In this document: positions 1,394 to 19,868 of the stretch, in pieces
How the letters are laid out: each line of letters opens with the position of its first letter
Numbering within the stretch: position 1 is the first letter of the stretch
From: Eubacterium sp.
GTDB lineage: Bacteria > Bacillota > Clostridia > Peptostreptococcales > Anaerovoracaceae
Assembly (NCBI GenBank): GCA_021769965.1
Contig: JAETRU010000012.1
Coordinates: forward strand, 1,215-65,214
Length of the DNA stretch: 64,000 nucleotides
Direction: 5' to 3'
The notes under the pieces: generated by a model
Told to the model about the DNA's origin: nothing
Seen by the model: the letters and a program-made list of their open reading frames with translations, nothing else
Database searches by the model: none
Position numbers and translations under genes: made by a program

Positions 1394-2707
1394 ATGACTA
1401 AAACATTTCATATAACGACTTTCGGCTGCCAGATGAATGAGCACGACTCTGAAATTATGGCAGGCATGCTTTTAGAAAAGGGCTTTACGCCGGTGAAGGA
1501 ACGAAAGGATGCTGACGTTGCGATTATCAATACCTGCAGTGTCAGGGAAAACGCGGACAAACGCTTTTTCGGCACCCTCGGTCAGCTGAAGCACCGCAAA
1601 AAAGAAAACCCTGACTTTATCGTCTGTGTCTGCGGCTGTATGATGCAGCAGCAGCATGTTATCGATACGATCAAGACCAAGTATCCGTGGGTGGATATCA
1701 TTTTCGGAACCCACAATATTCATCAGTTCCCGCAGCTGATCGAAAACGCTTTGAACGAGAAGAAGAAACAGATCGAGATCTGGCCCGACGGCGGTGAGAT
1801 CGTAGAAGGTCTGCCTGCCAAGCGGCTTCACCAGAGCAAAGCTCTTGTCAATATCATGTTCGGCTGCAATAATTTCTGCACCTACTGTATCGTGCCATAT
1901 ACCCGGGGCAGGGAGCGGAGCAGAAAGCCGGCGGAAATTGTTCGTGAGGTTCGCAATCTGGTCTCTGACGGTGTAAAGGAGATCATGCTTTTGGGTCAGA
2001 ATGTAAACTCCTATAAAGGAGAGGGCGGCACGGATTTCGCCGATCTGATCTACCAGCTCAACGAAGTAGAAGGGCTTGAGCGAATCCGTTTTATGACTTC
2101 CCATCCGAAAGATTTGTCGGATAAACTGATTCAGGCATTTGTAGACTGCGATAAACTCTGTAAAAATATTCATCTGCCGGTACAGTCAGGCAGCAGCAGG
2201 ATCCTCAAAGCGATGAACCGCCATTATGACAAAGAGCAGTATCTGAATTTAGTAGAAAAGCTGAAAAATGCTGTGCCGGGCATTACCATGTCCACGGATA
2301 TTATCGTAGGATTTCCGGGAGAAACAGAGGAAGATTTTGAGCAAACCCTGGATCTGATCAGCAGAGTCCGCTATGATTCTGCCTTTACCTTCCTGTATTC
2401 TATCAGAAAAGGTACGCCGGCAGAAAAATACGAAGATCAGATACCGGAAGAGATCAAACATGAACGCTTCAACCGTCTGGTGGATCTGGTGAATTCCATC
2501 AGTGCCGAAAAGAACGCCGCGTATGTGGGTACCGTACAGAAAGTGCTGGTGGAAGGTCCTGCGAAAAGCGGCAGCAAAACTTTTGCGGGCAGAACTGACG
2601 GTTTTAAGCTGGTAAATTTCCGCGGTGAGCCGCAGCTGACCGGTAAGCTGGTCGATGTAAAGATCACAAAGAGCAATACGTTCAGTCTGGAAGGAGAGGT
2701 TCTATGA
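1394..2707 (+). CDS. miaB: tRNA-2-methylthio-N6-dimethylallyladenosine synthase
   Basis: N-terminal TFGCQMN and NTCSVRE motifs, radical SAM CNNFCTYC, DIIVGFPGET, C-terminal TRAM domain. Confidence 0.95.
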   Translation: MTKTFHITTFGCQMNEHDSEIMAGMLLEKGFTPVKERKDADVAIINTCSVRENADKRFFGTLGQLKHRKKENPDFIVCVCGCMMQQQHVIDTIKTKYPWVDIIFGTHNIHQFPQLIENALNEKKKQIEIWPDGGEIVEGLPAKRLHQSKALVNIMFGCNNFCTYCIVPYTRGRERSRKPAEIVREVRNLVSDGVKEIMLLGQNVNSYKGEGGTDFADLIYQLNEVEGLERIRFMTSHPKDLSDKLIQAFVDCDKLCKNIHLPVQSGSSRILKAMNRHYDKEQYLNLVEKLKNAVPGITMSTDIIVGFPGETEEDFEQTLDLISRVRYDSAFTFLYSIRKGTPAEKYEDQIPEEIKHERFNRLVDLVNSISAEKNAAYVGTVQKVLVEGPAKSGSKTFAGRTDGFKLVNFRGEPQLTGKLVDVKITKSNTFSLEGEVL

Positions 2708-3306
2708 ACCCGAAATTAAGAGGCCTTTCTGCTGTTATTTCGGACTTTGTACCGGGCTGTGAGCAGGAAGAAAGAGACCGGAAGATCATGCTGAAGTTCC
2801 TAAAGGACAACGATAATTGTCTGGAGCGGGCGAATTTAACGGCGCATTTTACAGCCTCCTCGTGGATCGTAAACGAGGCAGGCGATGGCATGGGTGACGA
2901 TAAAGTACTTATGGTCTATCACAACCTGTATAACTCCTGGTCGTGGACAGGCGGTCACGCTGACGGCGAAGCAGACCTTCTTTCCGTTGCGATCCGTGAA
3001 GCGCAGGAAGAAACCGGGGTACAGGATTTCAAAGTACTTCGGCGCGAGCCGGTTTCTCTCGAAATCATTACCGTGGACGGTCATATGAAGCGCGGCATTT
3101 ACGTGCCGTCACATCTGCATTTAAACCTGACGTATCTGCTGCAGGCTGACGAGACACAGAAGCTGTCTGTAAAGCCTGACGAAAACAGCGGAGTCGCATG
3201 GATTCCTGCCGGAGAACTTGCTGAACGTGTCAGTGAGCCGTGGATGATGAGATGGGTCTATGAGAAGCTGATGGCGAGAGTGAAGAAAGTTTTAACTGAG
3301 GATTGA
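2704..3306 (+). CDS. NUDIX hydrolase
   Basis: Nudix box GGHADGEADLLSVAIREAQEETG; ATGA overlap with miaB stop. Confidence 0.9.
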   Translation: MNPKLRGLSAVISDFVPGCEQEERDRKIMLKFLKDNDNCLERANLTAHFTASSWIVNEAGDGMGDDKVLMVYHNLYNSWSWTGGHADGEADLLSVAIREAQEETGVQDFKVLRREPVSLEIITVDGHMKRGIYVPSHLHLNLTYLLQADETQKLSVKPDENSGVAWIPAGELAERVSEPWMMRWVYEKLMARVKKVLTED

Positions 3307-3444
3307 CGAACTCATATATAAGTGTACATATAATCGAAAAAATTCCTGAATATATGCACGTGTAATCACAAGGTCGTGCATATTTTAGGAGTTTTTTTGT
3401 TATATATGCATTTTGACATGATAAAAAATGAAGGGAGAGTGAAG

Positions 3445-4290
3445 ATGGAAGAGAGAATTCTGACTGTTGATTTGATTGAGGCATTTTGTACCTACTTGTA
3501 TCAGGAGGAGAAAAGCGAAGCAACCATTGAAAAATACCGTCGCGATGTAAAAAAATTTGCGGATTATTTAAACGGTGAAGCCGCAGTAAAGGAAAGGCTG
3601 ATTGCATACAAACAGTATTTAATTACGGAGGGCTATGCACTCAGCAGCGTCAATTCTATGCTGGTTGCAGTTAACAGCTTTTTTTCGTACGCAGGTTGGG
3701 AAGATTTGAGAATCAAACTGGTAAAAGTCCAAAAACAGATTTTTTGTGCAGAAGAAAAGGAACTGACGAGGTCGGAGTACTTACGCCTGGTAGATTGTGC
3801 GCGCAGGAGTGGAAAGGAAAGACTGGCGATGATCTTGTGGACTATGGGAACTACAGGAATCCGTATCAGTGAACTGAAGTTCATTACAGTAGAGTCAGTA
3901 AAACAAGGGAAACTGCAGGTGTGCAGCAAGTCAAAGAATCGAACTGTGTTTCTGGTAAAAAGGTTACGAAAAAAACTGCTTGCATACATAAAAAAGAAGA
4001 AAATTATATCTGGAAATATTTTTCTAACTCGCAGCGGGAGACCAGTCAATCGGACTAATATTTGGAAAGAGATGAAAACACTTTGTAAAGCAGCTGAGGT
4101 TTCAGAGAAAAAGGTTTTTCCGCATAACCTCCGGCACCTCTTCGCAAGAGTGTTTTATCAAGTGGAAAAGGATATCGCAAAATTGGCAGATATTCTGGGA
4201 CATAGCAGTATCAATACGACTCGGATTTATATGGCTTCATCGGGCTGTGAGCATCTGCGCTGCATGGAGAAAATGAAGATGTTGATGTGA
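3445..4290 (+). CDS. tyrosine recombinase (Xer/phage-integrase family), 281 aa
   Basis: Catalytic motifs GIRISEL, FPHNLRHLFA, LGHSSINTTRIY; ATG 3445 with GGGAGAG upstream. Confidence 0.93.
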   Translation: MEERILTVDLIEAFCTYLYQEEKSEATIEKYRRDVKKFADYLNGEAAVKERLIAYKQYLITEGYALSSVNSMLVAVNSFFSYAGWEDLRIKLVKVQKQIFCAEEKELTRSEYLRLVDCARRSGKERLAMILWTMGTTGIRISELKFITVESVKQGKLQVCSKSKNRTVFLVKRLRKKLLAYIKKKKIISGNIFLTRSGRPVNRTNIWKEMKTLCKAAEVSEKKVFPHNLRHLFARVFYQVEKDIAKLADILGHSSINTTRIYMASSGCEHLRCMEKMKMLM

Positions 4291-4299
4291 TAGATCAGA

Positions 4300-4327
4300 A
4301 TGCAACATAATTATGATTATGTTACAA
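4300..4327 (+). repeat. dif-like recombination site, left (IRL)
   Basis: ATGCAACATAA-TTATGA-TTATGTTACAA (11-6-11); right arm resembles the XerD arm TTATGTTAAAT; core 4306-4324 is the exact reverse complement of 4544-4562. Confidence 0.85.
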
Positions 4328-4351
4328 ATGTGTATAGCAACACATAAAAAG

Positions 4352-4380
4352 ATTATACTTTGAAATAGTGCAAAAATCAA
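4352..4380 (-). promoter_or_regulatory. sigmaA-type promoter inside the invertible segment, pointing away from the downstream operon
   Basis: Minus strand TTGATT (4380-4375)-17 bp-TATAAT (4357-4352); small IR ATGTGT-N6-ACACAT at 4328-4345 just downstream. Confidence 0.75.
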
Positions 4381-4540
4381 CATTTTCTGATAATATTTGT
4401 GACATTGATAGTTTTTTCTAATTTTGTCCATGACAAATAAGCTGTTTCGACTATTGCGGCATTAAATAACGAAAGAGCTTGTTTTGTTGTATCTGTAATT
4501 CTGTTTTGCAGTAATGGTTTTAGCTGAAAAAGAGTGCTAA

Positions 4541-4568
4541 TTATAACATAATCATAATTATGCTGTAA
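4541..4568 (-). repeat. dif-like recombination site, right (IRR), inverted relative to IRL
   Basis: Minus strand TTACAGCATAA-TTATGA-TTATGTTATAA; same 6-bp spacer as IRL. Confidence 0.85.
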
Positions 4569-4589: not shown

Positions 4590-5774
4590 ATGGCAAAGAT
4601 TGCAGATGTAATCAAGTATGAAGGAGATAACAGCACCTTTATATGGAAACATCCCAGTGAGGATTTTAACAGTTTGACACAACTGATTGTCCACGAAAGC
4701 CAGGAGGCTGTTTTCTTTATGAATGGACAGGCACTGGATTTATTCGGACCGGGCAGATATACATTGGAAACCCAGAATATTCCTAAGATCGGAAAACTCT
4801 TGAATCGCTCGACAGGAGATACAACGCCTTTTCACTGCGAGGTTTACTTTATTAATAAAACTGAACAGATGGCAATTAAGTGGGGTACTGACAGCAAAGT
4901 ACAGTACATAGAACCGACCTATGGATTTCCAATTTCTATCGGTGCTTCGGGCGAAATGAGTCTGCGGGTAGAGGATAGCAGAAAGCTTTTAATCAAGGTA
5001 GTAGGTACGGAGAGCTCTCTTGGTCAGCAGAATCTTACGACTTTCTTCCGTGGGTTTCTGATGGCTCGTGTAAAGACATATATCGCGCAGGTGATGAAGT
5101 CCAATGCGATTAATATCTTTGAAATTGACGAAAATCTGACTGTCTTTTCGGAAAACGTTCGGAATCTTTTAATAAATGATTTTGCTGATTACGGCGTCAG
5201 CCTGGAACGCTTTTTTGTAACCAACATTGTAAAGCCTGACGGTGAGCGACAGTTCGAAAAGTTCAAAGAACTGTATTTTCGCCAGTATGCTGATATTGCG
5301 GAGGCAAAGCTCCGTCAGCAGGTTGGAATCATCGACCAGCAGACCGAGGCACAGAAGATGGTGATTGAATCTCAGGCAATTGCGCAGAAACGAATGCAGG
5401 AAGGCTATACCTATCAGCAGGAAAGAGGTTTTGATGTTGCGCAGGACGCAGCTAAAAATGAGGCAGTAGGACAGTTTACCAATATGGGTATTGGACTTGG
5501 TGTCATGGGCGGCGTTGGCAGCAGTGTGGGCACTATGGTTGGCGGCGCAGTAAGCGGCGCTTTTGACGGAATGCAGGGTGTCGCAGCTGTACAGTCTGTA
5601 GGAAATACAGACACTTTTTGTGAAAACTGTGGTGCAAAGCTTGCTGCTGGTGCAGCATTTTGCGAGGAGTGCGGTATTGCCGTGCCTGTGGATACTTCAA
5701 AGTGTGTCGGCTGCGGGTTTGTCTTTGAACGTCCGGGTAAGTTCTGTCCAAAATGCGGTATGAAGAGAGGGTAG
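4590..5774 (+). CDS. SPFH/band-7 ('virion core protein'-type) protein with C-terminal double zinc ribbon, 394 aa
   Basis: LIVHESQEAVFF..GQALDLFGPGRYTL N-terminus, coiled middle, Gly-rich linker, CENC/CEEC/CVGC/CPKC; GAGGAGG RBS. Confidence 0.85.
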   Translation: MAKIADVIKYEGDNSTFIWKHPSEDFNSLTQLIVHESQEAVFFMNGQALDLFGPGRYTLETQNIPKIGKLLNRSTGDTTPFHCEVYFINKTEQMAIKWGTDSKVQYIEPTYGFPISIGASGEMSLRVEDSRKLLIKVVGTESSLGQQNLTTFFRGFLMARVKTYIAQVMKSNAINIFEIDENLTVFSENVRNLLINDFADYGVSLERFFVTNIVKPDGERQFEKFKELYFRQYADIAEAKLRQQVGIIDQQTEAQKMVIESQAIAQKRMQEGYTYQQERGFDVAQDAAKNEAVGQFTNMGIGLGVMGGVGSSVGTMVGGAVSGAFDGMQGVAAVQSVGNTDTFCENCGAKLAAGAAFCEECGIAVPVDTSKCVGCGFVFERPGKFCPKCGMKRG

Positions 5775-5778
5775 AAGG

Positions 5779-6486
5779 ATGAGTAAAAGATTTAAAATGT
5801 ACGCCTCCGTATGGGCGATTATGTTTATTGTATTTCAGATTATCTGTTTCGTAACGCCGACTGAGGCCGCAGGAATGAATAAATTCGGCGGCGCGTTTTG
5901 GGCAGGATATGTGTTTATCGATCTGGCTTTTGTCGGACAGCTGGTCTGCGCTTATATTGCACTGAAAGCAGAAAATATGCGGAAGCTGTTTTATAACCTG
6001 TCTCTGATTAATATCAGCTATACGGGACTTGTGCTTATGTTGATATGCGGTGCTGGAGTGATGATCGTGCCAGATATTCCAAACTGGGTTGGAATCATTC
6101 TATGTCTTCTAATTTTGGCCTTTACTGCAACATCCGTGATTGCGGCCAAAGCGACTGTGGATATTGTCGACCGCATGGACGATAAGTTAAAGGTTCAGAC
6201 CTTTTATATGAAAAATCTGCAGACAGAGGCGGAAACCTTGATGTCGCAGGCAAAATCGCCAGAAAGTAAAGCTGTTTGTAAAAAAGTCTACGAAGAAATT
6301 CGCTACGCTGATCCGATGAGCCACGAAGCTCTGACCACCTTAGAAGCACAGATTACTATTAAATTTGCAGAATTAAAAGAAGCCGTTGCCAGTGAAGATG
6401 ATTCGGCTGAGACTGTACAGCAATTGGCAAAAGAGGTAATTGTGCTGGTGCAGGAGAGAGGAAAGAAAGTAAAGCTGGTGAAGTAG
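5779..6486 (+). CDS. membrane protein, about 4 TM helices plus soluble helical C-terminus
   Basis: Four hydrophobic stretches in the N-terminal half; 4 bp after SPFH stop. Confidence 0.85.
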   Translation: MSKRFKMYASVWAIMFIVFQIICFVTPTEAAGMNKFGGAFWAGYVFIDLAFVGQLVCAYIALKAENMRKLFYNLSLINISYTGLVLMLICGAGVMIVPDIPNWVGIILCLLILAFTATSVIAAKATVDIVDRMDDKLKVQTFYMKNLQTEAETLMSQAKSPESKAVCKKVYEEIRYADPMSHEALTTLEAQITIKFAELKEAVASEDDSAETVQQLAKEVIVLVQERGKKVKLVK

Positions 6487-6487
6487 G

Positions 6488-7696
6488 ATGGGGAAAAGAG
6501 TATCTTTTTTATTTGGTTCAGGTGCGGATACTGCTGCATGCAAGAAGTTGAAATCAGGTGACTCTTTTGCTGAAGCGTTGCTATTGGGGAAATATAGAAA
6601 AGAAAGAAAAGAATTATTAGGTGAGGACTTTGCAGAATATCAACTTATATATCCACAGAGTAGCAAGGTCTTTATTCAAAGTATTGTTGAAAATAAAGAA
6701 GAAGCGCAAAAAATTTTCCCTGAAAAATTTGATATTTGTTATAATTATGCAACCCAAAAAGAGGAAATAGATTATAGTGGTGTGATAAGACCAATGTGCA
6801 AAGACTTTTATGATATTATCCATAGTGAAGAACAAGAAGAGACGAAAGACATCAGGAACTTCTTTTTGAAAAAAGCCGTTTTCTTTGATTCGCTAGATGA
6901 AAAATTCAACTCATTAAGGGATATTGAATTTAATAAAAATGGAAAAAGAGTTATTAATGCGTATGTTACTATTTTTATTCTCATGTTCAAAAGCCTTTAT
7001 GATATACCTGAAGAGTTTCAATGGACATATGAAAACATATTCAACGTATTGAAGAAAGACTACGATATTTTGTCCGATATAACAAATGAGAATTATTATA
7101 GTATTGTAAAGAACAGTGGAATTTCGTGTAAAATTATCACAACAAACTATACTGAATTATCGGAGAAGCTAACAGAAAAACCAGTAACATACTTGCATGG
7201 AAAACTGAATTGGTTTGAGGATTTAAAGAATTTAACTGTTTATGATTGTACGAATAAAGAGGAACTGAATAAGATGAAACCTCTTATTAAATCTTGCTGT
7301 TTAATACCGTTTATATTAATACCTAGCGGAATCAAGCCAATCATATGCAAAAGACAAATCAAAGAATTTTATAAAATGATTGAGAAATTGGATAATAGCA
7401 ATATTCTATGTGTCGTTGGATACCGATTTAATAGTGAGGATAATCACATAAATTCAATTATTGCTGAGTGGATTAGAGAACCTAATCATCAGCTATTTTA
7501 TTTCAATTTTAATGAAGATGTAAGTTTTTCAAGATTAAGATGGGCGGACTTGTTTTCGATAAAAGATATAGAATATCGTGACAATTATGAGATAAATTTT
7601 ATAAAAATCGAAGAAAAAATTGTAAATATCATTGTAAATGAGAGCAATAGTATAAAGGCATTTTCTACATTTATGAATCAACTTGAAAGGAGTTAA
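6488..7696 (+). CDS. SIR2-like (SIR2_2-type) protein, putative NADase, 402 aa
   Basis: FLFGSGAD, IITTNYT, YLHGKL, ILIPS, VVGYRFNSEDNHIN motifs in sirtuin order; very AT-rich. Confidence 0.75.
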   Translation: MGKRVSFLFGSGADTAACKKLKSGDSFAEALLLGKYRKERKELLGEDFAEYQLIYPQSSKVFIQSIVENKEEAQKIFPEKFDICYNYATQKEEIDYSGVIRPMCKDFYDIIHSEEQEETKDIRNFFLKKAVFFDSLDEKFNSLRDIEFNKNGKRVINAYVTIFILMFKSLYDIPEEFQWTYENIFNVLKKDYDILSDITNENYYSIVKNSGISCKIITTNYTELSEKLTEKPVTYLHGKLNWFEDLKNLTVYDCTNKEELNKMKPLIKSCCLIPFILIPSGIKPIICKRQIKEFYKMIEKLDNSNILCVVGYRFNSEDNHINSIIAEWIREPNHQLFYFNFNEDVSFSRLRWADLFSIKDIEYRDNYEINFIKIEEKIVNIIVNESNSIKAFSTFMNQLERS

Positions 7697-7703
7697 TCTA
7701 ATA

Positions 7704-10208
7704 ATGTCAATATTCAAATGCAAAATGTGCGGCGGTACACTGGAAATCACAAATAATGAAACTGTAGCAGTCTGTGAGTACTGCGGCACTAAGCAGACTT
7801 TACCAAAACTTGATGATGAAAAACGCGCTAATCTTTACGACCGTGCAAACCATTTCAGACGTAGTAACGAGTATGATAAAGCGATGGGAATTTATGAACA
7901 GATTCTTAACGAGGACAGCACGGATGCAGAAGCGTACTGGTCGCTGGTGCTTTGCCGCTATGGTATTGAGTATGTAGAAGATCCAGCTACTCACAAGCGC
8001 GTGCCGACAGTGAACCGTGCACAATATGCTTCTATTTTCACTGATGAAGACTATAAAGCGGCATTACAACATGCTGACGGATATCAGAGGGTAGTTTACG
8101 AAGAAGAAGCGCAGGCAATCGACAATATCCAGAAAGGTATTCTTGCTATATCACAGCGTGAAGAACCTTTTGACGTGTTTATTTGCTACAAAGAAACGGA
8201 CAATCAAGGACGGAGAACGCCTGACTCTGTGCTTGCCAACGACCTGTATCATCAGCTGACACAGGAGGGCTTTCGCGTATTCTTTGCGAGAATTACCTTG
8301 GAGGATAAGCTGGGTTCTGCATATGAGCCGTACATATTTGCAGCATTGAACTCCGCAAAGGTTATGGTTGTGCTTGGAACAAAGCCAGAGCATTTTCAGG
8401 CTGTATGGGTAAAAAATGAGTGGAGCAGATATCTTTCATTAATTAAGAATGATGCTAAGAAAATGCTGATTCCAGCTTACAAGGATATGGATCCATATGA
8501 TTTACCGGAAGAATTTTCTCATCTGCAAGCACAGGATATGTCCAAGCTTGGCTTTATGCAGGATTTGATTCGTGGAATTAAGAAAATTACGGCGTTAGAA
8601 AAACCAAAGACTACAGCAAAGGAAACCGTAGTCGTAAGCAGTGCCGCCGGCAATGCAGAATCGCTATTAAAGCGTGCCTTTATGTTTCTTGAAGATGGTG
8701 ATTTTGCAAGTGCAAACGAATACTGTGAGAAAGTGCTGGATTTAGATCCAGAAAATCCAAGAGGCTATCTGGGCAAACTGATGGCAGAGCAGAATGTCAG
8801 AACAAAAGAAGCCTTGAAAGATTGTAAAGAATCCTTTGAGGAAGCGAATAACTATCAGAAGGTGGTTCGCTTTGGTGATGCTGCTTTAGTTGCTGAACTA
8901 CAAGGATATGTTAAATATATCAATGACAGAAATGAACTGGATAGAAAGATGTTTGCTTATGATACTGCAAAATCTTTAATGGAAAGGGCTAAAAGTGAAA
9001 ATGATTTCAAAGAAGCTGCAGAAAAATTCCAGATAGCAGCAGGTTATGAGGACGCAGATAATTTGGCTGATGAATGTCTGGAAAAGGCAGAAATTGCAAG
9101 GAAAGATGCGATCTATGATGCCGCACAGATGCAGATGAAAAGAAATACAATTTCTGATTATGAGAAAGCAATAGAAGGATTTCAGAGTATTGTAGACTGG
9201 AAAGACTCAGAAGAACAGAAAGTTGTTTGTCAACAGGCGTTATCCAAACTTCAGGCTGAACGAGAGGTGAGGAGTAAGACAACTAAAAAATGGATTAAAA
9301 TATTAGTTCCTCTGGCAATTATATGTGCTGTTTTAGGAATTGTCGTAAAAACGATAATTATACCAGAAAGTCAATATAAAAACGCAATAAGTTTAATGGA
9401 GCAAAACCAATACGAAAAAGCAATTAAAGAGTTTGAAAAGCTTAATGGATACAAAGATAGTAGAAATAAAATCAGTGAAGCAGAAGAATTGTTTTTAGAA
9501 AACAAATACCAATATGCGGTTGAATTATATCAGAATAAAGAATTTGAAAAGGCCAGGAAAGAATTTGAACTGTTAGGCGATTATAAGAACTCTAAAGTTT
9601 TAATTAAGAAGTATTTAATGGAAAGTGGAGTGGATTACTCTAAAATAGGTGATTCCTATTATTTTGGATCTTATGAACAAGATAATGATAGGAGTAATGG
9701 CAAAGAGAAAATAGAGTGGCTTATTATTGAAAGAAATGATAACAAGGCATTATTAATTAGCAAGTATGTATTGGACTATAGAAAATATAATAGTGACGCT
9801 GTTGTTGTAAAGAGCCTCAACGATTACGATGAAACAACAGGAACAATGAGCTGGGAACAGTGTGATTTAAGAAGTTGGCTTAATAATGAGTTCCTAAAAA
9901 ATGCATTTACTTTAAAAGAAAGAAATCAAATACGAGATGATATTTTTATCCTATCATCGAATGAAGTTGAAAAATATTTCCCTTCGAGCGAACTTAGGGT
10001 TTGTGAGCCAACGGTTTATGTAAAGAAAAAAGGTGTTAAGACAAATTCTTATGGGAAATGCGATTGGTGGCTAATAGCTAGTGAGAGTATAGAATCTTCA
10101 TATAGATTATCTACATCAATTGTGTCTGGTGTTGGAGAAATTTCTAAAGCGGGTGTTGATTCACAAATTGGTGTTCGCCCAGCCATCTGGCTTGACCTTG
10201 CTAAATAA
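7704..10208 (+). CDS. Zn-ribbon/TPR/TIR/TPR/TM/DUF6273-like multidomain membrane protein, 834 aa
   Basis: CKMC..CEYC; TPR helices; TIR FDVFICYK...VWVKNEW with the conserved Glu; one TM (ILVPLAIICAVLGIVV); C-terminal IEW...LLISKY...W..CDLRSWLN...WWL...GVRPAIWLDL. Confidence 0.85.
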   Translation: MSIFKCKMCGGTLEITNNETVAVCEYCGTKQTLPKLDDEKRANLYDRANHFRRSNEYDKAMGIYEQILNEDSTDAEAYWSLVLCRYGIEYVEDPATHKRVPTVNRAQYASIFTDEDYKAALQHADGYQRVVYEEEAQAIDNIQKGILAISQREEPFDVFICYKETDNQGRRTPDSVLANDLYHQLTQEGFRVFFARITLEDKLGSAYEPYIFAALNSAKVMVVLGTKPEHFQAVWVKNEWSRYLSLIKNDAKKMLIPAYKDMDPYDLPEEFSHLQAQDMSKLGFMQDLIRGIKKITALEKPKTTAKETVVVSSAAGNAESLLKRAFMFLEDGDFASANEYCEKVLDLDPENPRGYLGKLMAEQNVRTKEALKDCKESFEEANNYQKVVRFGDAALVAELQGYVKYINDRNELDRKMFAYDTAKSLMERAKSENDFKEAAEKFQIAAGYEDADNLADECLEKAEIARKDAIYDAAQMQMKRNTISDYEKAIEGFQSIVDWKDSEEQKVVCQQALSKLQAEREVRSKTTKKWIKILVPLAIICAVLGIVVKTIIIPESQYKNAISLMEQNQYEKAIKEFEKLNGYKDSRNKISEAEELFLENKYQYAVELYQNKEFEKARKEFELLGDYKNSKVLIKKYLMESGVDYSKIGDSYYFGSYEQDNDRSNGKEKIEWLIIERNDNKALLISKYVLDYRKYNSDAVVVKSLNDYDETTGTMSWEQCDLRSWLNNEFLKNAFTLKERNQIRDDIFILSSNEVEKYFPSSELRVCEPTVYVKKKGVKTNSYGKCDWWLIASESIESSYRLSTSIVSGVGEISKAGVDSQIGVRPAIWLDLAK

Positions 10209-10266
10209 AAATAATTTCAATAAATTACGCTTACGGTATATTTGAAATTAACAAATAATTCATTAC

Positions 10267-10303
10267 AAATGGCACTATGCACTAGATTTGTATAGTGCCA
10301 TTT
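10267..10303 (+). terminator. stem-loop after the TIR gene (probable terminator and intron target)
   Basis: AAATGGCACTAT (10267-10278) / ATAGTGCCATTT (10292-10303) perfect 12-bp IR. Confidence 0.6.
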
Positions 10304-10309
10304 ATAGTG

Positions 10310-10420
10310 GAGTGCCGGGCATGACACAGTTCTAAGATGATCCTAAGCTCAGGTTGAGAGTCAGCACCACCAAAACAAAGGTCGTGAGACCTGCCAGGAG
10401 CAATTTCTTAGGTTTATCTT
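10310..10420 (+). pseudogene. group IIC intron relic (5' end plus reverse-transcriptase fragment)
   Basis: GAGTGCCGGGCATG resembles the IIC 5' end GTGTGCCCGGCATG, 6 nt after a stem-loop; frame from 10339 reads PKLRLRVSTTKTKVVRPARSNFLG, like RT domains 6-7. Confidence 0.55.
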
Positions 10421-10528
10421 CTGAAAAGACAGGGAATGTCTATATATAGTTGTTGCTATTTTCAAAACTGTGTGCTACAATAACTGCGTACATTATTTAT
10501 TTTTTGCGTGTGGAAAGTTGGTGTCTGC

Positions 10529-11134
10529 TTGAGTAAAAAAGAAATTTTGAAAACGGTAATTGAAAATAACGGCGGCATTGCAAAAACTTCGGATTTTGCC
10601 ACTAACGGTATAAATAAATACGAGGTAGCGGCTTTTTGTAAAGAAGGAGTCATTGAAAGAATTCGCAGAGGATTTTACCAGCTCCCCCAAAGTAAAAGCA
10701 TTACCGAAGAACAGCTCATACGGGAGCTTCTTCCGCAGGGAATTATTTGTGTGGAGTCCGCTTTGTTTCACTACGGATATAGTGATTTTTCTCCCCGTGA
10801 ATGGACGATTGCTGTACCAAGAACAGCGTCCCGTGTTGTAAAGAACATTGAAGAATTTCCGATGAAAGCTTACTATATTCAAAAAAGCTTTTTAGATATA
10901 GGTAAGTCCACAGGCAATTTTAACGGTGTAATATTGTCTGTGTATGATCGTGAGCGAACAATATGTGATTGCTTTAAGTACCGCACTAAACTTGACAACG
11001 AAATTTTTAATAAGGCTGTCAATGCCTATGCTGCTGACGAAAAAAAGAATCTTGCAAATTTGTCTAAATACGCAAAGGAAATGAAGCTTTATACAAAGAT
11101 TATGAATGTAATGGAGGTGCTGCTTAATGGCTGA
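10529..11134 (+). CDS. abiEi: type IV TA antitoxin, AbiEi family
   Basis: N-terminal wHTH (IERIRRGFY), GIICVESALFHYG, YDRERTICD; overlaps the toxin start. Confidence 0.85.
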   Translation: MSKKEILKTVIENNGGIAKTSDFATNGINKYEVAAFCKEGVIERIRRGFYQLPQSKSITEEQLIRELLPQGIICVESALFHYGYSDFSPREWTIAVPRTASRVVKNIEEFPMKAYYIQKSFLDIGKSTGNFNGVILSVYDRERTICDCFKYRTKLDNEIFNKAVNAYAADEKKNLANLSKYAKEMKLYTKIMNVMEVLLNG

Positions 11135-12026
11135 TATAGCTGCGTCCGTGCTGGCACGGCTCAAAAACAAAGCTGCTGAAAACGGCAGAAGCTATCAGCT
11201 CTGCCTGCAGCTCTTTTGCCAAGAGGAATTCTTGCGCCGTTTGGAAAAGTCTAGGTATGCTGAAAACCTCGTGTTGAAAGGCGGCTTGTTCCTCTATTCC
11301 CTCACTGACTTTGACAGCCGGGTAACGGTTGATGTTGATTTTTTGCTTCGGAAAATGCCCAATACACCGGAGCAGTTAAAGGGTATACTTGAGGAAATTA
11401 TTGCGGTTCATACCGGCAATGATTTTATTACCTTTGAGATAAAGGATGTTGCACCTATTGCTGCTCAGAAGAAATATGCCGGTATAGGTGCATCAATAGT
11501 TGCTCGTGTAAAAAACACACGCACACCCTTTGGCATTGACTTCGGCGTTGGGGATGTTATCGTGCCGAAACAGGAAAAAAGAAAGATTCCCACTCAGCTT
11601 GATGATTTTGCTGCACCTACAGTTAATACTTATTCCATTGAAACGACTGTTGCTGAGAAAATTGACGCGATCCTCAGCCTGATGGAGTTCTCCAGCCGCA
11701 TGAAAGACTATTACGATATTTATTATCTTGCCAATAAGTTTGACTTTGACGGTATGGTGCTGACCGAAGCACTCAGAAGAACCTTTGCGAACCGTGAGCA
11801 CAATTTTACGGGAGAACAGTTTGAACAGGTTATGGGCTTCGATGGAGATACGGCAATGCAGAAGAAATGGAAAGCCTTTGTCCGTAAAATCGACACGAAA
11901 ACCGATGATTACAGTACCGTGTTGAAAATAATAAAGGCTTTCCTGACAAAACCGTTTACTGCGGCGACCAGCGGTAAAGAATTTACTGAAAAATGGTCTG
12001 CAATTAATGGCAAATGGATGCAATAG
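11127..12026 (+). CDS. abiEii: nucleotidyltransferase toxin, AbiEii family
   Basis: VLKGG, RVTVDVDF, ETTVAEKIDA, SRMKDYYD motifs. Confidence 0.88.
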   Translation: MADIAASVLARLKNKAAENGRSYQLCLQLFCQEEFLRRLEKSRYAENLVLKGGLFLYSLTDFDSRVTVDVDFLLRKMPNTPEQLKGILEEIIAVHTGNDFITFEIKDVAPIAAQKKYAGIGASIVARVKNTRTPFGIDFGVGDVIVPKQEKRKIPTQLDDFAAPTVNTYSIETTVAEKIDAILSLMEFSSRMKDYYDIYYLANKFDFDGMVLTEALRRTFANREHNFTGEQFEQVMGFDGDTAMQKKWKAFVRKIDTKTDDYSTVLKIIKAFLTKPFTAATSGKEFTEKWSAINGKWMQ

Positions 12027-12101
12027 GATGTAGCTGTTCGGCCACGTCTTCACGCTCTGCCATCTGATTTAGCAGAGCTGACAGATCCCGCCGAAAAACA
12101 C

Positions 12102-13331
12102 TTACGACTTTTTGATTTGAACCTTCTCGATTTCTCCCGCCAGTTCAAATCCTTTTTTGGCGGCGATTACAGCGATGATCTCATTGATTACAGCGGCAGC
12201 GGCGATGGTTCCCTGCAGGATGCCGACAAGGGCAGGCTGCGATGCCAAAGTAGCGCAGGCGATTCCGGTAAAGACGAGGGAAACACCGGAATGGGGCAGC
12301 AGGGTAAGGCCGAGATATTTCTGTACGGTTTCGGGCATTTTAGTTGCTTTTGCGCCAAACCTGGCTCCGAAATATTTTCCGGCGCCTCTTGCCGCGATAT
12401 ATAAAACAGTGTAGGATCCGGCGCCGAGAATCAAATGATAGTTCAGCGGAGCGCCGAGGTCAACAATGGCGGCCAGCAGACTGACCGCAAGGACAGGGTG
12501 AAAATAGTCTGTGATTTCTTCCAACCGCTCTTTATCGACCATATTGGTAAATACAGCCGAGAAGGAAACCCCCATCAGCATATAGTTCAGCGTAATGCCG
12601 GACAGTATTTTTGTATTTATGAACCAGCCAATGCCGGCTGTCAGTGTGATGCCGCAAAGCAAAACGATTAATGTCTGCCCGCGGCCGCATCCTCTGCTTA
12701 ACAGCCTGCCTGCGGGAAGTCCTGTTACAAGGCCGATGATGACCGGCAAAAGGACCATCACGGGAATCATATACAGAGGAACCGTGCCGCCGGATACGGA
12801 GCTGGCCACAACGGAATTGACCGTGAAGAATACAATGATCGCCACGATATCATCTAACACTGCCATTGGCAGCAATGTGCTGGTTACAGGTCCTTTTGCG
12901 TGAAATTCATTTACAATGGATAACGCAGGCGCAGGCGCGGTAGCCAGTGCGATCCCGCCGAAGATGAAGGCGAGGAAAACAGGCACGCCCGCCGCGAGAA
13001 ACGCGATTCCAAAGACGATCGTGATGAAACAGAAAGTGCCTAAAGACTGAGTCAATGTAGTGATGATCAGTCCTTTGCCGTAGGTTTTGAGTTCTTTCCA
13101 TACGAGTTCTGTTCCGAGCATCAGACCAAAGGCGCACTGCATCCACATGATAACGGTCTTATACCATCCGGCAGTGAGGATAGAATCCGGCATGAGTCCG
13201 AGCGCGTGCGGTCCGAATATCATACCGATGATCAGCCATCCTAAAATAGAAGGAAGCTTGATTTTAGAAAACAGTTTGCCGGTAAACAGCGCCAGCGCAA
13301 GTACGAGCAGCCATCGAAGCAGTTGTATCAT
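12102..13331 (-). CDS. cation:proton antiporter (CPA2/Na+/H+ exchanger family)
   Basis: About 12 TM segments; ATAPA and AVLDD motifs. Confidence 0.85.
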   Translation of the reverse strand: MIQLLRWLLVLALALFTGKLFSKIKLPSILGWLIIGMIFGPHALGLMPDSILTAGWYKTVIMWMQCAFGLMLGTELVWKELKTYGKGLIITTLTQSLGTFCFITIVFGIAFLAAGVPVFLAFIFGGIALATAPAPALSIVNEFHAKGPVTSTLLPMAVLDDIVAIIVFFTVNSVVASSVSGGTVPLYMIPVMVLLPVIIGLVTGLPAGRLLSRGCGRGQTLIVLLCGITLTAGIGWFINTKILSGITLNYMLMGVSFSAVFTNMVDKERLEEITDYFHPVLAVSLLAAIVDLGAPLNYHLILGAGSYTVLYIAARGAGKYFGARFGAKATKMPETVQKYLGLTLLPHSGVSLVFTGIACATLASQPALVGILQGTIAAAAVINEIIAVIAAKKGFELAGEIEKVQIKKS

Positions 13332-13939
13332 TTCCGGGTACCTCCTTTTGCAATTCCGTATAACATAAAGTCAAGCAGCTTAGAAAGAGTGAGCTCATGT
13401 TCTTTGATCCGATCTTCAAGGGCCGTATTGCGGCAGGCGGGGCTGCTGAAATATCCATTGAACATTCGCTGCATCTGACGGAAATAAGCGATAGAATCTT
13501 CTTCTGTGATACCGTCCCGCAGTGTGAGGCCGGAGATCACATGACGGTATATTTTTTCGTTCATTTCTTCAAACGGTTCTAAAACCTCATTGATCCTGTC
13601 CAGTAATTTCTCCTGGGGCTGCAGAACTGCCTCAAAGAAAATGTGCGCTTCGTTAGGGCATTCTGTAAAAAAGCGCATACGCAGTTTCAGGTACTGCAGC
13701 GGATCAGAAGCGCAGCCGCTTTCCTGAATCATAGAGATCAGCTTCCGGCAGCTGTTCTCAAGGCATACAAGATAGAGCGCGTCTTTATTTTTAAAGTTAT
13801 GATAAATCAGCCCTTTGTTGATTCCTCTTTTACAGATATTGTTAATCGTTCCTTTGGCGTAACCCTTTGTGCCAAATTCCGCAAGGGCCGCTTCCAGTAT
13901 TTTTGATACAGTTAATTCTGTACGTTCGGTTCTTTTCAT
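13328..13939 (-). CDS. TetR/AcrR family regulator
   Basis: N-terminal HTH (ILEAALAEFGTKGY...INKGLIYHNFKNKDALY); overlaps antiporter start. Confidence 0.9.
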   Translation of the reverse strand: MKRTERTELTVSKILEAALAEFGTKGYAKGTINNICKRGINKGLIYHNFKNKDALYLVCLENSCRKLISMIQESGCASDPLQYLKLRMRFFTECPNEAHIFFEAVLQPQEKLLDRINEVLEPFEEMNEKIYRHVISGLTLRDGITEEDSIAYFRQMQRMFNGYFSSPACRNTALEDRIKEHELTLSKLLDFMLYGIAKGGTRK

Positions 13940-13987
13940 TTTGTTTGATCAATACCTTTCTGATAGGATTTATCTGCCACGGTGACT

Positions 13988-14019
13988 ATGGTAACATAAA
14001 TTGACCGGTTAGTCAATTT
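13988..14019 (-). promoter_or_regulatory. tetR promoter with overlapping palindromic operator
   Basis: Minus TTGACT-17-TACCAT; IR AAATTGAC (13998-14005) / GTCAATTT (14012-14019). Confidence 0.7.
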
Positions 14020-14128
14020 TCAGAATGAGAAAACTACACGGGAAGAAAAAGAGCAAAAAGAAAAAGTTGTGCGTCCTGGCCTTAAAAAGACAGATTCGCA
14101 CAACTTTCAACTTATATGATTTCAATGA

Positions 14129-16924: not shown

Positions 16925-17009
16925 GCGGCGTTTGGAAGGTATGCAAAAAAATCTTTCCATTTCGTGTTCACACCCGGTCATCGTTCGTAACCTGTGTAAA
17001 TTGGCTGTA

Positions 17010-17180
17010 TTTGGGCAGTTCTTCTGACTTAGACATCGGACGCCCTTATCTTGCCTTCCCGGTTTCCCAGTGACATTTATTAAGAAAGAGCTACGTCATT
17101 ACAGCGGCGTGACCGTGCAGGAGTTTCACCTGCTTCTCTTTTGACCCCCCCTCAAAAGGGACCCGTATACATTCAATTGT
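17010..17180 (-). ncRNA. cobalamin riboswitch 1 (cbiMNQO)
   Basis: Minus: AAAAGAGAAGCAGGTGAAACTCCTGCACGGTCACGCCGCTGTAA...CACTGGGAAACCGGGAAGG...AAGTCAGAAGAACTGCC. Confidence 0.92.
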
Positions 17181-17186
17181 AATTCA

Positions 17187-17324: not shown

Positions 17325-17497
17325 ACAACTGAATGATAAGTATTTCTTGTCTGTTTTTACAGCAAAGAGGGAAACAGGTGTAAATCCTGTGCGGTTGCCG
17401 CCGCTGTAAGGGAGAAGTCATGCCGGTATACCACTGGGCGTAAGGGTCTGGGAAGGTGCGCATGATGCAGATACCCGAGCCAGAAGACCTGCATGAA
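17325..17497 (+). ncRNA. cobalamin riboswitch 2 (repeat-protein gene and cbiK)
   Basis: AGAGGGAAACAGGTGTAAATCCTGTGCGGTTGCCGCCGCTGTAA...CACTGGG...GGGAAGG...GAGCCAGAAGACCTGC. Confidence 0.92.
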
Positions 17498-17556
17498 ATA
17501 CAGGAAGTTCCCTGACGGTTATCAGGCATCCTGAAAACAGATACAGAAAATACGGG

Positions 17557-19560: not shown

Positions 19561-19574
19561 TTTGTTAAGCAACT

Positions 19575-19748
19575 TGAAAATATTGGTTGATAAAATCGTA
19601 ATATGGAATCAGGTGAGAGTCCTGAACAGTCCTGCTGCCGTAATGACGGAGCTTTTTTGCAAGGCGTACAGCCAGTCACTGGGAATGTTTCCCGGGAAGG
19701 CGCATAGAGAGCATTGACGTCAGAGTCGGAAGACATCCCAATATTTGA
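19575..19748 (+). ncRNA. cobalamin riboswitch 3 (cbiD operon)
   Basis: P1 AATATTGG (19579-19586)/CCAATATT (19738-19745); GGAATCAGGTGAGAGTCCTGAACAGTCCTGCTGCCGTAA...CACTGGGAA...GGGAAGG...GAGTCGGAAGAC. Confidence 0.9.
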
Positions 19749-19868
19749 CCGTGAAAGTCACAGGATATGAGTTTTAGGGTAATAGATTTAGTTGATCTTT
19801 CGACGAACAGATTCCCGGTAAGCAGAAGATGCCCGCTCGAAGAAATCAACTTTATAGAGCAGATATCT

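Follow-up and report, generated by a model that had tools for sequence, protein, structure and literature searches.

The stretch of DNA considered here, 64,000 nucleotides from Eubacterium sp. (contig JAETRU010000012.1) and referred to below as the window, carries at positions 4590 to 10208 a four-gene operon, preceded by a tyrosine recombinase gene and a short invertible segment. The genes encode, in this order, an SPFH protein with a C-terminal double zinc ribbon (SPFH-ZnR), a protein with four transmembrane (TM) helices (4TM), a SIR2-like protein (SIR2L) and a predicted membrane receptor containing a TIR domain. In a first-pass annotation, made from the sequence alone, the four genes had been proposed to form a membrane-associated TIR-SIR2 signalling or abortive-infection system under phase variation. 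Judging from the comparisons described below, the object of interest is larger than the SIR2-TIR pair: it is a phase-variable, cassette-bearing system built around SPFH, 4TM and TIR-receptor proteins. The anatomy of the locus, its inverton and its cassette structure can be regarded as established with high confidence.

The operon and its gene products

The four open reading frames (ORFs) lie on the plus strand (Table 1) and are separated by gaps of 4, 1 and 7 nt, as first annotated. The receptor ORF opens at a TTG at 7683, while its homologs start at the ATG at 7704 (MSIFKCKMCGG). Its ribosome-binding site (RBS), AAGGAG, sits within the last codons of the SIR2-like gene, a detail that had also been correctly noted, and the original domain calls for all four proteins were borne out by Pfam, hydropathy, structure modelling and Foldseek. 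Rfam and tRNA scans found nothing in the operon locus. In one run guessed to be of RNA, short fragments with 100% identity were found in the SIR2L and receptor genes, too weak a signal for any claim of transcription or of a polycistronic message.

The first protein matches Band_7_1 (1.6e-40) and DZR (2.5e-8) in Pfam and has no predicted TM helix. It shows the YdjI/SamI-type architecture, that is, a soluble Band_7 SPFH domain, a low-complexity stretch and a C-terminal zinc finger. The second protein contains four hydrophobic helices and, in the predicted cytoplasmic helical bundle that follows, the invariant residues R175, Y176, P179 and S181 within a stretch RYxDPMS. It has no Pfam, PADLOC or NCBIfam family; its AlphaFold model is of moderate confidence (predicted local distance difference test score, pLDDT, 77) and has no fold match in the PDB (best E 0.1). 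None of the operon proteins gave a match to a PspA domain.

The third protein, SIR2L, has no Pfam match; its hits in sequence libraries are marginal, namely the SIR2 model of PADLOC (E 1e-3) and a deacylase of NCBIfam (5.7e-4). Its AlphaFold model, based on an alignment of 49 sequences, has a pLDDT of 91.5 and a predicted template modelling score (pTM) of 0.89. The top Foldseek matches are the SIR2 chains of SIR2-HerA (Nezha) complexes, followed by the classical sirtuins Sir2Af2, Sir2Tm, PfSir2A and SIRT5, all with probability 1.0. Moreover, the profile of the SIR2L family matches the SIR2 of SIR2-HerA (8w9l) in sequence, with TTNY aligned to TTNY. Residues G10, G12, T218, N220, Y221, T222 and G238 are invariant in the 49 sequences and H237 is conserved in at least 90% of them; they fall into the motifs FGSGAD (G10 and G12, the NAD loop), TTNYT (N220) and LHG (H237). 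The N-x16-H spacing is the one found in classical sirtuins. A SIR2 fold with an intact sirtuin-type NAD pocket motif is confirmed for this protein. It has no zinc-binding module and carries a helical insertion. No match to SLOG, Macro or ThsA was obtained in Pfam, NCBIfam or PADLOC, and the model consists of a single SIR2 domain.

The fourth protein combines a TIR_2 domain (9.3e-11, residues 158-281), TPRs, one TM helix (residues 535-553) and a C-terminal DUF6273 domain (4.5e-15). The flank that precedes the TM helix is rich in Lys and Arg (RSKTTKKWIK), from which the positive-inside rule predicts that the N-terminal 534 residues, including the TIR domain, are cytoplasmic and that DUF6273 is extracellular. 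The catalytic motifs picked out in the first-pass annotation (TTNY and LHG in SIR2L, WVKNEW in the TIR domain) are conserved in the 49 SIR2L sequences and in 63 diverse relatives of the receptor; in the latter, the Glu of WVKNEW and long stretches of the surrounding module reach at least 95% conservation.

Table 1. Coordinates of the operon, its control region and the adjacent AbiE pair (positions in the window)
Feature	Position	Strand	Basis or remarks
Tyrosine recombinase, invertase candidate	3376..4290	+	Phage_integrase 2.6e-24 and SAM-like N domain
Left inverted repeat, 25 nt	4303..4327	.	core site ACATAATTATGATTATGT at 4305-4322
Invertible segment, 213 bp	4328..4540	.	promoter TTGATT-17-TATAAT on minus strand, 4380..4352
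Right inverted repeat, 25 nt	4541..4565	.	core site ACATAATCATAATTATGC at 4546-4563; 1 mismatch, 4-nt spacer reversed
SPFH (Band_7_1) protein with Gly-rich low-complexity linker and C-terminal double zinc ribbon	4590..5774	+	Pfam
4TM protein with C-terminal cytoplasmic helical bundle (predicted)	5779..6486	+	TM prediction, residues 7-122
Stand-alone SIR2-fold protein, 402 aa, without sensor domain	6488..7696	+	model, Foldseek, motifs
Predicted single-pass receptor, N-in/C-out, 834 aa	7704..10208	+	Pfam, TM helix, positive-inside flank, conservation
Receptor: zinc ribbon, then TPR	from 7704		
Receptor: TIR domain	~8175-8546		
Receptor: catalytic Glu E239	~8418-8420		
Receptor: TPR/coiled coil			
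Receptor: TM helix	~9306-9362		
Receptor: TPR-like stalk			
Receptor: DUF6273 ectodomain	~9738-10205		
AbiEi/AbiEii pair	10508..12026	+	PADLOC 4.5e-62 and 1.7e-92; genes overlap by 8 nt

The invertible promoter

A tyrosine recombinase flips the 213-bp segment upstream of the operon between two sites of the form ACATAAT-N4-ATTATGT. This core site occurs twice in the 64-kb window, against 0.01 copies expected. The only good sigma-70-like promoter revealed in the segment by a promoter scan (TTGATT-17-TATAAT, 10/12) lies on the minus strand and faces away from the operon; the window is therefore OFF. Inversion would bring the -10 element to about 70 nt 5' of the ATG at 4590.

The exact SPFH protein was used to retrieve seven contigs of the same strain from public assemblies, six of which contain the segment. 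In five of these (L020, L022, L023, L024 and L026) the assembly consensus has the orientation of the window. In the sixth, L021, the flanks are identical and the segment they enclose is reverse-complemented, with 0 mismatches; the promoter thereby comes to lie about 70 nt 5' of the ATG. This constitutes direct evidence of inversion. The phase variation predicted from the window alone has thus been observed, and both hallmarks of an inverton are present: inverted repeats enclosing a promoter next to a recombinase gene, and the occurrence of both orientations across public assemblies.

The start of the recombinase is uncertain, since the ORF opens at a GTG at 3376 and gene callers give 297 aa with a start at about 3397 on identical contigs. 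The protein has matches, below the cutoffs, to XerA/XerD-like and tyrosine-type DNA invertase families of NCBIfam. The same combination of recombinase and paired sites precedes the SPFH gene in 9 of the 44 related loci examined; the pair is also present in additional contigs, and at no other place in the roughly 1 Mb of loci retrieved. Assembled relatives with a recognisable promoter are mostly OFF-like. No joints at the repeats were found in Logan contigs of the public runs containing the locus, and a contig break inside the invertible segment (X3) was uninformative.

Homologs of the recombinase (46-55% identical) occupy the equivalent position in L011, L012 and L018. In two of these loci (L018, 6619-11245; L011, 7212-11143) a recombinase of this family lies upstream and one strict copy of ACATAAT-N4-ATTATGT follows the recombinase gene, at 8058 in L018 and at 8105 in L011. 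The genes located 3' of the recombinase are, in L018, one for a lipoprotein with BspA-type leucine-rich repeats (LRRs), fused stop-to-start with SIR2L, and in L011 DUF6273/CUB fragments accompanied by SIR2L. This arrangement suggests pairs of a phase-variable surface protein and SIR2.

The conserved core and its exchangeable slot

The gene neighbourhood was surveyed with the 4TM protein as anchor, in 80 metagenome loci as well as genome loci, giving about 100 related loci overall. The SPFH-ZnR gene lies directly 5' of the 4TM gene in 54 of 58 loci. On the 3' side, a TIR receptor is encoded in 41 of 52 loci, directly in 17 of them and after exactly one intervening gene, termed here the slot gene, in 24; ten further loci encode a zinc-ribbon-TPR-coiled-coil protein without TIR. 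The conserved core of the system is therefore formed by SPFH-ZnR, 4TM and one or more TIR receptors, and SIR2L is an accessory gene, one cassette among many.

The slot genes are mutually unrelated. Besides SIR2L, they include a second, shorter SIR2-like protein, proteins with one or two TM helices, a number of small proteins that show weak HEPN matches and the motif R-[ND]-xxx-H-G, DUF2971 proteins that correspond to the PADLOC single-gene candidate PDC-S31 (2.8e-26), and unknowns. Their GC content is typically 10-20 points below that of both flanks, as illustrated by the SIR2L gene of the window (0.295 versus 0.43 and 0.41). The ortholog from Emergencia sp. 1XD21-10, which retains the same miaB-NUDIX-recombinase-inverton-SPFH-4TM context, is about 80% identical to the window at the DNA level up to position 6488 and again from 7699. 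The break in homology covers exactly the SIR2L gene, which is replaced there by a gene for a 2-TM protein. The four-gene TIR-SIR2 system of the first-pass annotation is not supported, as a unit, by this comparison: SIR2L is an exchangeable low-GC cassette that is replaced or absent in most loci.

The SIR2L family itself comprises 713 representatives in an exhaustive profile search; none of 226 close homologs has a Pfam domain, and no fusion (Rosetta-stone) proteins occur among the matches listed (150 of 713, 103-488 aa). Homologs of all four operon proteins are encoded together in 8 of the 15 species-level genomes that contain SIR2L, with the gene order of the window in six and a rearranged order in two; the hosts include Oscillospiraceae, Ruminococcaceae and Erysipelotrichaceae. 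In the other 7 genome loci SIR2L occurs without SPFH, 4TM or TIR, beside other surface-protein genes, and in some loci it is predicted to be co-transcribed with exported LRR, RCC1 or DUF6273 proteins. Where the partner is an exported LRR protein, one may speculate that an effector gene is co-expressed with a surface protein that phages could exploit.

These observations bear directly on an alternative explanation, according to which SIR2L and the other slot genes are self-sufficient single-gene defence or toxin modules that have settled in a recombination hot spot flanked by two conserved genes and borrow the phase-variable promoter, while being mechanistically independent of the TIR receptor and of the SPFH and 4TM proteins. 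The low GC content of SIR2L, a trend found in nearly all loci, and its precise exchange in Emergencia favour such an explanation, as do the empty slot of 17 of 52 loci and the slot families that are unrelated from locus to locus, one of them a single-gene candidate in its own right. It is also in keeping with the 7 of 15 genome loci in which SIR2L stands apart from the core, with its stand-alone nature among the matches listed, and with its presence in just 1 of the 52 loci anchored on 4TM, where it occupies another position. Nevertheless, the cassettes are always co-oriented and mostly tightly joined or translationally coupled, with junctions of -32 to +87 nt, and in the window the RBS of the receptor lies inside the SIR2L coding sequence. 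Furthermore, the four genes stay together across bacterial orders and through rearrangement of gene order, and even outside the operon SIR2L adjoins receptor-type genes with the same TPR/coiled-coil/TM stalk (L001-L004, L010) or is found with the same recombinase and site (L011, L018). With both sides considered, mere hitch-hiking of the cassettes appears rather unlikely.

A separate arrangement was observed in loci L001-L004 (6413-9290), in which a gene for a receptor without TIR (TPR/coiled coil, TM helix and RCC1 propeller) overlaps the start of a SIR2L homolog. This pair is found among AAA_21, type I restriction-modification (RM) and ResIII genes on human gut contigs, in a setting resembling a defence island. 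The corresponding cluster of SIR2L counts 170 members on 43 contigs; the pair resembles a two-gene variant.

A second break with respect to Emergencia spans 9236-14127, where the TM/ectodomain part of the receptor and the downstream genes are replaced. Apart from the AbiE genes, this region of the window holds a 409-aa multi-pass membrane protein (12102-13331, minus strand) and a TetR-like regulator (13328-13939, minus strand); the Emergencia equivalent contains a different ectodomain, remnants of a diversity-generating retroelement (DGR) and a RelB-like pair. In two loci without TIR (L046, 3864-5162; L049, 10256-11668) an IS3-type transposase gene lies directly 3' of a gene for a 461-aa zinc-ribbon-TPR-coiled-coil protein that follows the 4TM gene. 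These insertions are consistent with the region 3' of 4TM being an insertion hot spot.

The receptor family and its ectodomains

Two aspects absent from the first-pass annotation are the size of the receptor family, with its variable ectodomains, and the fact that the DUF6273 ectodomain is a DGR target in relatives. The zinc ribbon-TPR-TIR-TPR module is found in at least 8000 clusters (at 90% identity) with E <= 1e-10, the identity usually being near 70%. Of 56 receptors, 48 have a single predicted TM helix, and many loci encode two or three receptors. Among 52 receptors, the ectodomain is DUF6273 in 31, RCC1 in eight, RHS in three and BspA-type LRR in two (L066 and L103); Flg_new and Sel1 are also represented. 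The two LRR receptors (L103, 9267-11717; L066, 2701-7227) consist of the zinc-ribbon-TPR-TIR module, one TM helix and the BspA-type LRR ectodomain.

According to published descriptions, DUF6273 is a C-type-lectin-like domain that occurs in DGR targets and in phage receptor-binding proteins (PMC10743442; bioRxiv 2024.10.15.618418). In L029, Avd-like genes and a reverse transcriptase (RT) gene come after the receptor gene, and the mismatches between a 127-nt template repeat (TR) and the receptor gene's 3' end are confined to template adenines. Such a restriction of the mismatches to TR adenines is the signature of a DGR, and judging from these repeats the DUF6273 end of the receptor is a genuine DGR target in relatives of the window. 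The DGR is also complete in L094, and degraded in L027/28 and L050. The window has no DGR, and AbiE takes up the side in question. Weak DUF6273-type matches (28% identity) were found in gut phages.

Genomic surroundings

The AbiE pair that follows the operon, as had been annotated, is a neighbouring, separate unit and not a member of the operon: it has its own promoter-like site (10453-10481), lies inside the replaced region 9236-14127 and is absent from the Emergencia ortholog. The depth of metagenome contigs over 10356-12100 is 5-20 times that of the operon, with many variants; AbiE is therefore common to other, more abundant genomes in the same samples.

On the other side, genes for a MiaB-like radical-SAM methylthiotransferase (1388-2707) and a NUDIX hydrolase (2704-3306) lie immediately 5' of the recombinase gene, an order that is kept in Emergencia. 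The inverton operon is therefore embedded in a housekeeping context and not in an obvious mobile element. Further downstream, three cobalamin riboswitches (82-112 bits) are located at 16997-17181 (minus strand), 17330-17510 (plus strand) and 19567-19756 (plus strand); they adjoin cbi/ECF-type transporter genes and are syntenic with a CbiM/N/Q/O cluster 3' of the Emergencia ortholog. Finally, the system is cellular, and not viral or plasmid-borne: a single match was obtained in 2.9 M viral contigs and none in plasmids.

Proposed function and its alternatives

The locus may be read as an inverton-gated operon for a modular, outside-in, NAD-based membrane surveillance or conflict system that includes a YdjI/SamI-like module, a proposal that could equally well prove right or wrong. 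Once the promoter is ON, receptors would sit in membrane assemblies organised by SPFH and 4TM. They would then cluster on an external ligand, most plausibly a phage particle or a surface structure of another cell; alternatively, clustering could be triggered by a membrane perturbation sensed by the SamGHI-like module. Bringing TIR domains together is the general activation route of TIR NADases, and clustering would in this way yield an active enzyme, whose cleavage of NAD+ would either deplete it or turn it into a signal. The cassette protein would execute or reinforce growth arrest or abortive infection through a second lethal or static activity, provided here by the SIR2-like NADase and elsewhere by HEPN-like RNases, DUF2971 or TM proteins. 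Phase variation would limit both the cost of the system and the exposure of its surface domain.

A role in biological conflict or immunity, taken by itself, is somewhat favoured on the strength of the cassette types, the conserved catalytic residues, the link to DGRs, the AbiE neighbour and the setting of L001-L004. Direct signalling from TIR to SIR2 seems distinctly unlikely.

Several findings weigh against this proposal. The SPFH, 4TM and receptor proteins match no PADLOC v2 family at E <= 0.01, in line with the expectation of the first-pass annotation that no full known system would be found. The core must be able to work without any cassette, the slot being empty in 17 of 52 loci. SIR2L lacks a recognisable signal-binding domain, which leaves no obvious activation route for a TIR product, and a model in which SIR2L docks onto receptors does not explain its position beside exported LRR proteins devoid of any cytoplasmic portion (L018, L014). 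As regards diversification, the window contains neither a TR-like copy of 9400-10260 (at least 70% over 60 nt) nor RT or Avd genes detectable by tblastn, and membrane-bound cellular DGR targets have usually been read as adhesion or binding proteins (PMC8144416). The flanking genes are mostly housekeeping genes. The enrichment of related loci in defence islands, which had been suggested as a check, was weak to absent: about 6 of 148 flanking proteins, a count that has no matched background, correspond to PADLOC families other than the recombinase (PDC-S05, PbeC, dCTPase, PDC-S23, LmuA and mad8; recombinases match as mad3), and no clear signal emerged.

Part of this evidence leads to a non-immune interpretation, in which the receptor is a phase- and DGR-variable adhesin or sensor of host glycans, particles or neighbouring cells, coupled to a SamGHI-like envelope-stress module, and the TIR and SIR2 proteins tune NAD metabolism or signalling instead of killing the cell. 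It would agree with the housekeeping context (miaB, NUDIX and cobalamin genes), the scarcity of defence genes in the flanks, and the predicted co-transcription of SIR2L with exported proteins. Phase variation and DGRs are likewise typical of surface structures, cellular DGR targets being mostly membrane-anchored binding proteins (PMC8144416), and SamGHI is a sensor of stress and development and not a defence system. The strong conservation of the catalytic Glu of TIR and of the NAD motifs of SIR2 speaks, however, against it, and what the slot encodes (HEPN-like, DUF2971/PDC-S31, SIR2 and small TM proteins) is typical of conflict effectors. In addition, AbiE lies next door, L001-L004 resemble defence islands, and the operon encodes no transcription factor or kinase as output. 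A non-immune role of this kind appears quite improbable.

A broader and bolder version of the immune proposal would hold that gut Firmicutes possess a very large family of outside-in immune receptors, functional analogues of Toll-like receptors, which sense phage particles before or during adsorption through an RCC1, RHS, LRR or C-lectin-like ectodomain, the last hypermutated by DGRs in some strains, and thereby activate a TIR NADase inside the cell, with an SPFH/4TM scaffold, exchangeable effectors and bet-hedging by the inverton. As a whole, this version is considered unlikely. To our knowledge, every TIR or SIR2 defence system studied in depth detects infection from within the cell. If it were true, a family with TIR inside and a diversifiable binding domain outside would represent a new sensing principle in bacterial immunity, with an SPFH scaffold and swappable effectors, and the first bacterial defence in which a somatically diversified receptor detects the invader from the cell's exterior. 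It would also link DGR hypermutation, phase variation, NAD-based abortive infection and SPFH microdomains in one locus, and would provide DUF6273, along with thousands of unannotated "TIR domain-containing" proteins from human and animal gut microbiomes, with a concrete function. Should the immune reading fail, the locus still offers a clear natural case of cassettes being exchanged within an operon slot, together with a defined 7-4-7 recombinase site by which a family of surface-protein operons is controlled.

Comparison with known systems

The locus belongs neither to Thoeris nor to SIR2-HerA or DSR. The likeness to Thoeris resides in a TIR domain with a catalytic Glu encoded beside a SIR2-fold protein, which makes an NAD-based conflict logic plausible. 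A divergent Thoeris, in which the TIR protein would act as ThsB (producing a cADPR-isomer signal) and the SIR2 protein as ThsA (a signal-activated NADase), could be invoked on the basis of this adjacency and of a weak match of the TIR domain to NCBIfam ThcB4 of type III (E 2.4e-5, 23 bits against a cutoff of 220). However, no PADLOC model for ThsA or ThsB is matched. ThsA proteins (SIR2-SLOG or Macro/TM effectors) contain a sensor, whereas SIR2L has no SLOG, Macro or other ligand-binding domain. The TIR domain of the locus is the predicted cytoplasmic part of an 834-aa TM receptor with an extracellular domain; and SIR2 is a dispensable, exchangeable cassette in this family, where SPFH-ZnR and 4TM are the conserved partners and expression is placed under an invertible promoter. 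The statement of the first-pass annotation that this is not canonical Thoeris consequently holds, and membership in a divergent form is very improbable, being close to refuted.

As for SIR2-HerA (Nezha) and DSR1/DSR2, the SIR2 chains of the former head the structural matches of SIR2L, which, like defence SIR2s, lacks the zinc module and has the helical insertion. In contrast, no HerA-like ORF is present in the operon or its flanks, and SIR2L, with 402 aa, has no large sensor domain and belongs to a family of its own without a Pfam model.

A close counterpart of the membrane core is SamGHI/YdjGHI of B. subtilis, which together with PspA forms an SPFH-based membrane stress sensor complex (PMC8581546; PMC9239133; bioRxiv 10.64898/2026.02.06.704340). 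In both cases a protein of YdjI/SamI architecture is encoded with integral membrane partners, one of which has an N-terminal zinc ribbon: YdjG in B. subtilis and the receptor in the present locus. The differences are that a PspA gene is missing from the operon, that control is exerted by an inverton instead of sigma-W, and that the zinc-ribbon membrane partner would have gained TPR, TIR and ectodomain. Since the receptor, too, begins with a zinc ribbon and contains a TM helix, the core may be a SamGHI-like module, with the receptor zinc ribbon and 4TM as putative relatives of YdjG and YdjH.

With respect to diversification, a comparison can be made with the "putative antigen sensors" that DGRs diversify in multicellular bacteria, for the most part cytoplasmic STAND or MoxR-vWA systems of Proteobacteria and Cyanobacteria (Dore et al. 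2024, PMC10907252), and with the membrane-bound cellular DGR targets of the global survey (Roux et al. 2021, PMC8144416), which describes such targets only as binding proteins. The shared trait is a variable domain of C-type-lectin fold fused to conflict effector domains, including TIR, and relatives of the receptor carry a genuine cassette of TR, variable repeat (VR), Avd and RT. Unlike the antigen sensors, the protein considered here is a single-pass receptor of gut Firmicutes with the C-lectin predicted outside and TIR inside, SPFH/4TM partners and an effector slot; the window, moreover, has lost, or never had, a DGR.

Gut invertons (e.g. PMC11602134) share with this locus the short inverted repeats, the adjacent tyrosine recombinase, the promoter within the segment and the occurrence of both orientations. 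Their cargo is different, since capsule, fimbriae or RM specificity genes are replaced here by a TIR/SIR2 membrane operon, and the site is a defined 7-4-7 motif common to a family of loci.

Toll-like receptors can be mentioned by analogy only. They are likewise single-pass proteins with an extracellular repeat or lectin domain and a cytoplasmic TIR, the LRR-TM-TIR layout of L066 and L103 being formally similar. The topology is nevertheless opposite, with TIR N-terminal and the ectodomain C-terminal in the present family, which has kept the enzymatic Glu. BspA-type LRRs are unrelated to those of Toll-like receptors, and the resemblance is almost certainly convergent.

In the literature library searched, no paper combines SPFH, TIR, SIR2 and phage. 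Terms for DGR and TIR led to cytoplasmic sensors or general papers and to none on the gut receptor family, and those for SPFH and DGR led only to a 2020 eLife survey, where SPFH appears merely in the reference list. NAD-based TIR/SIR2 conflict modules, DGR-diversified sensors and invertons are all known kinds of element, and the locus is a variation on them; what appears genuinely unusual, as far as predicted topology and gene content indicate, is its transmembrane outside-in architecture.

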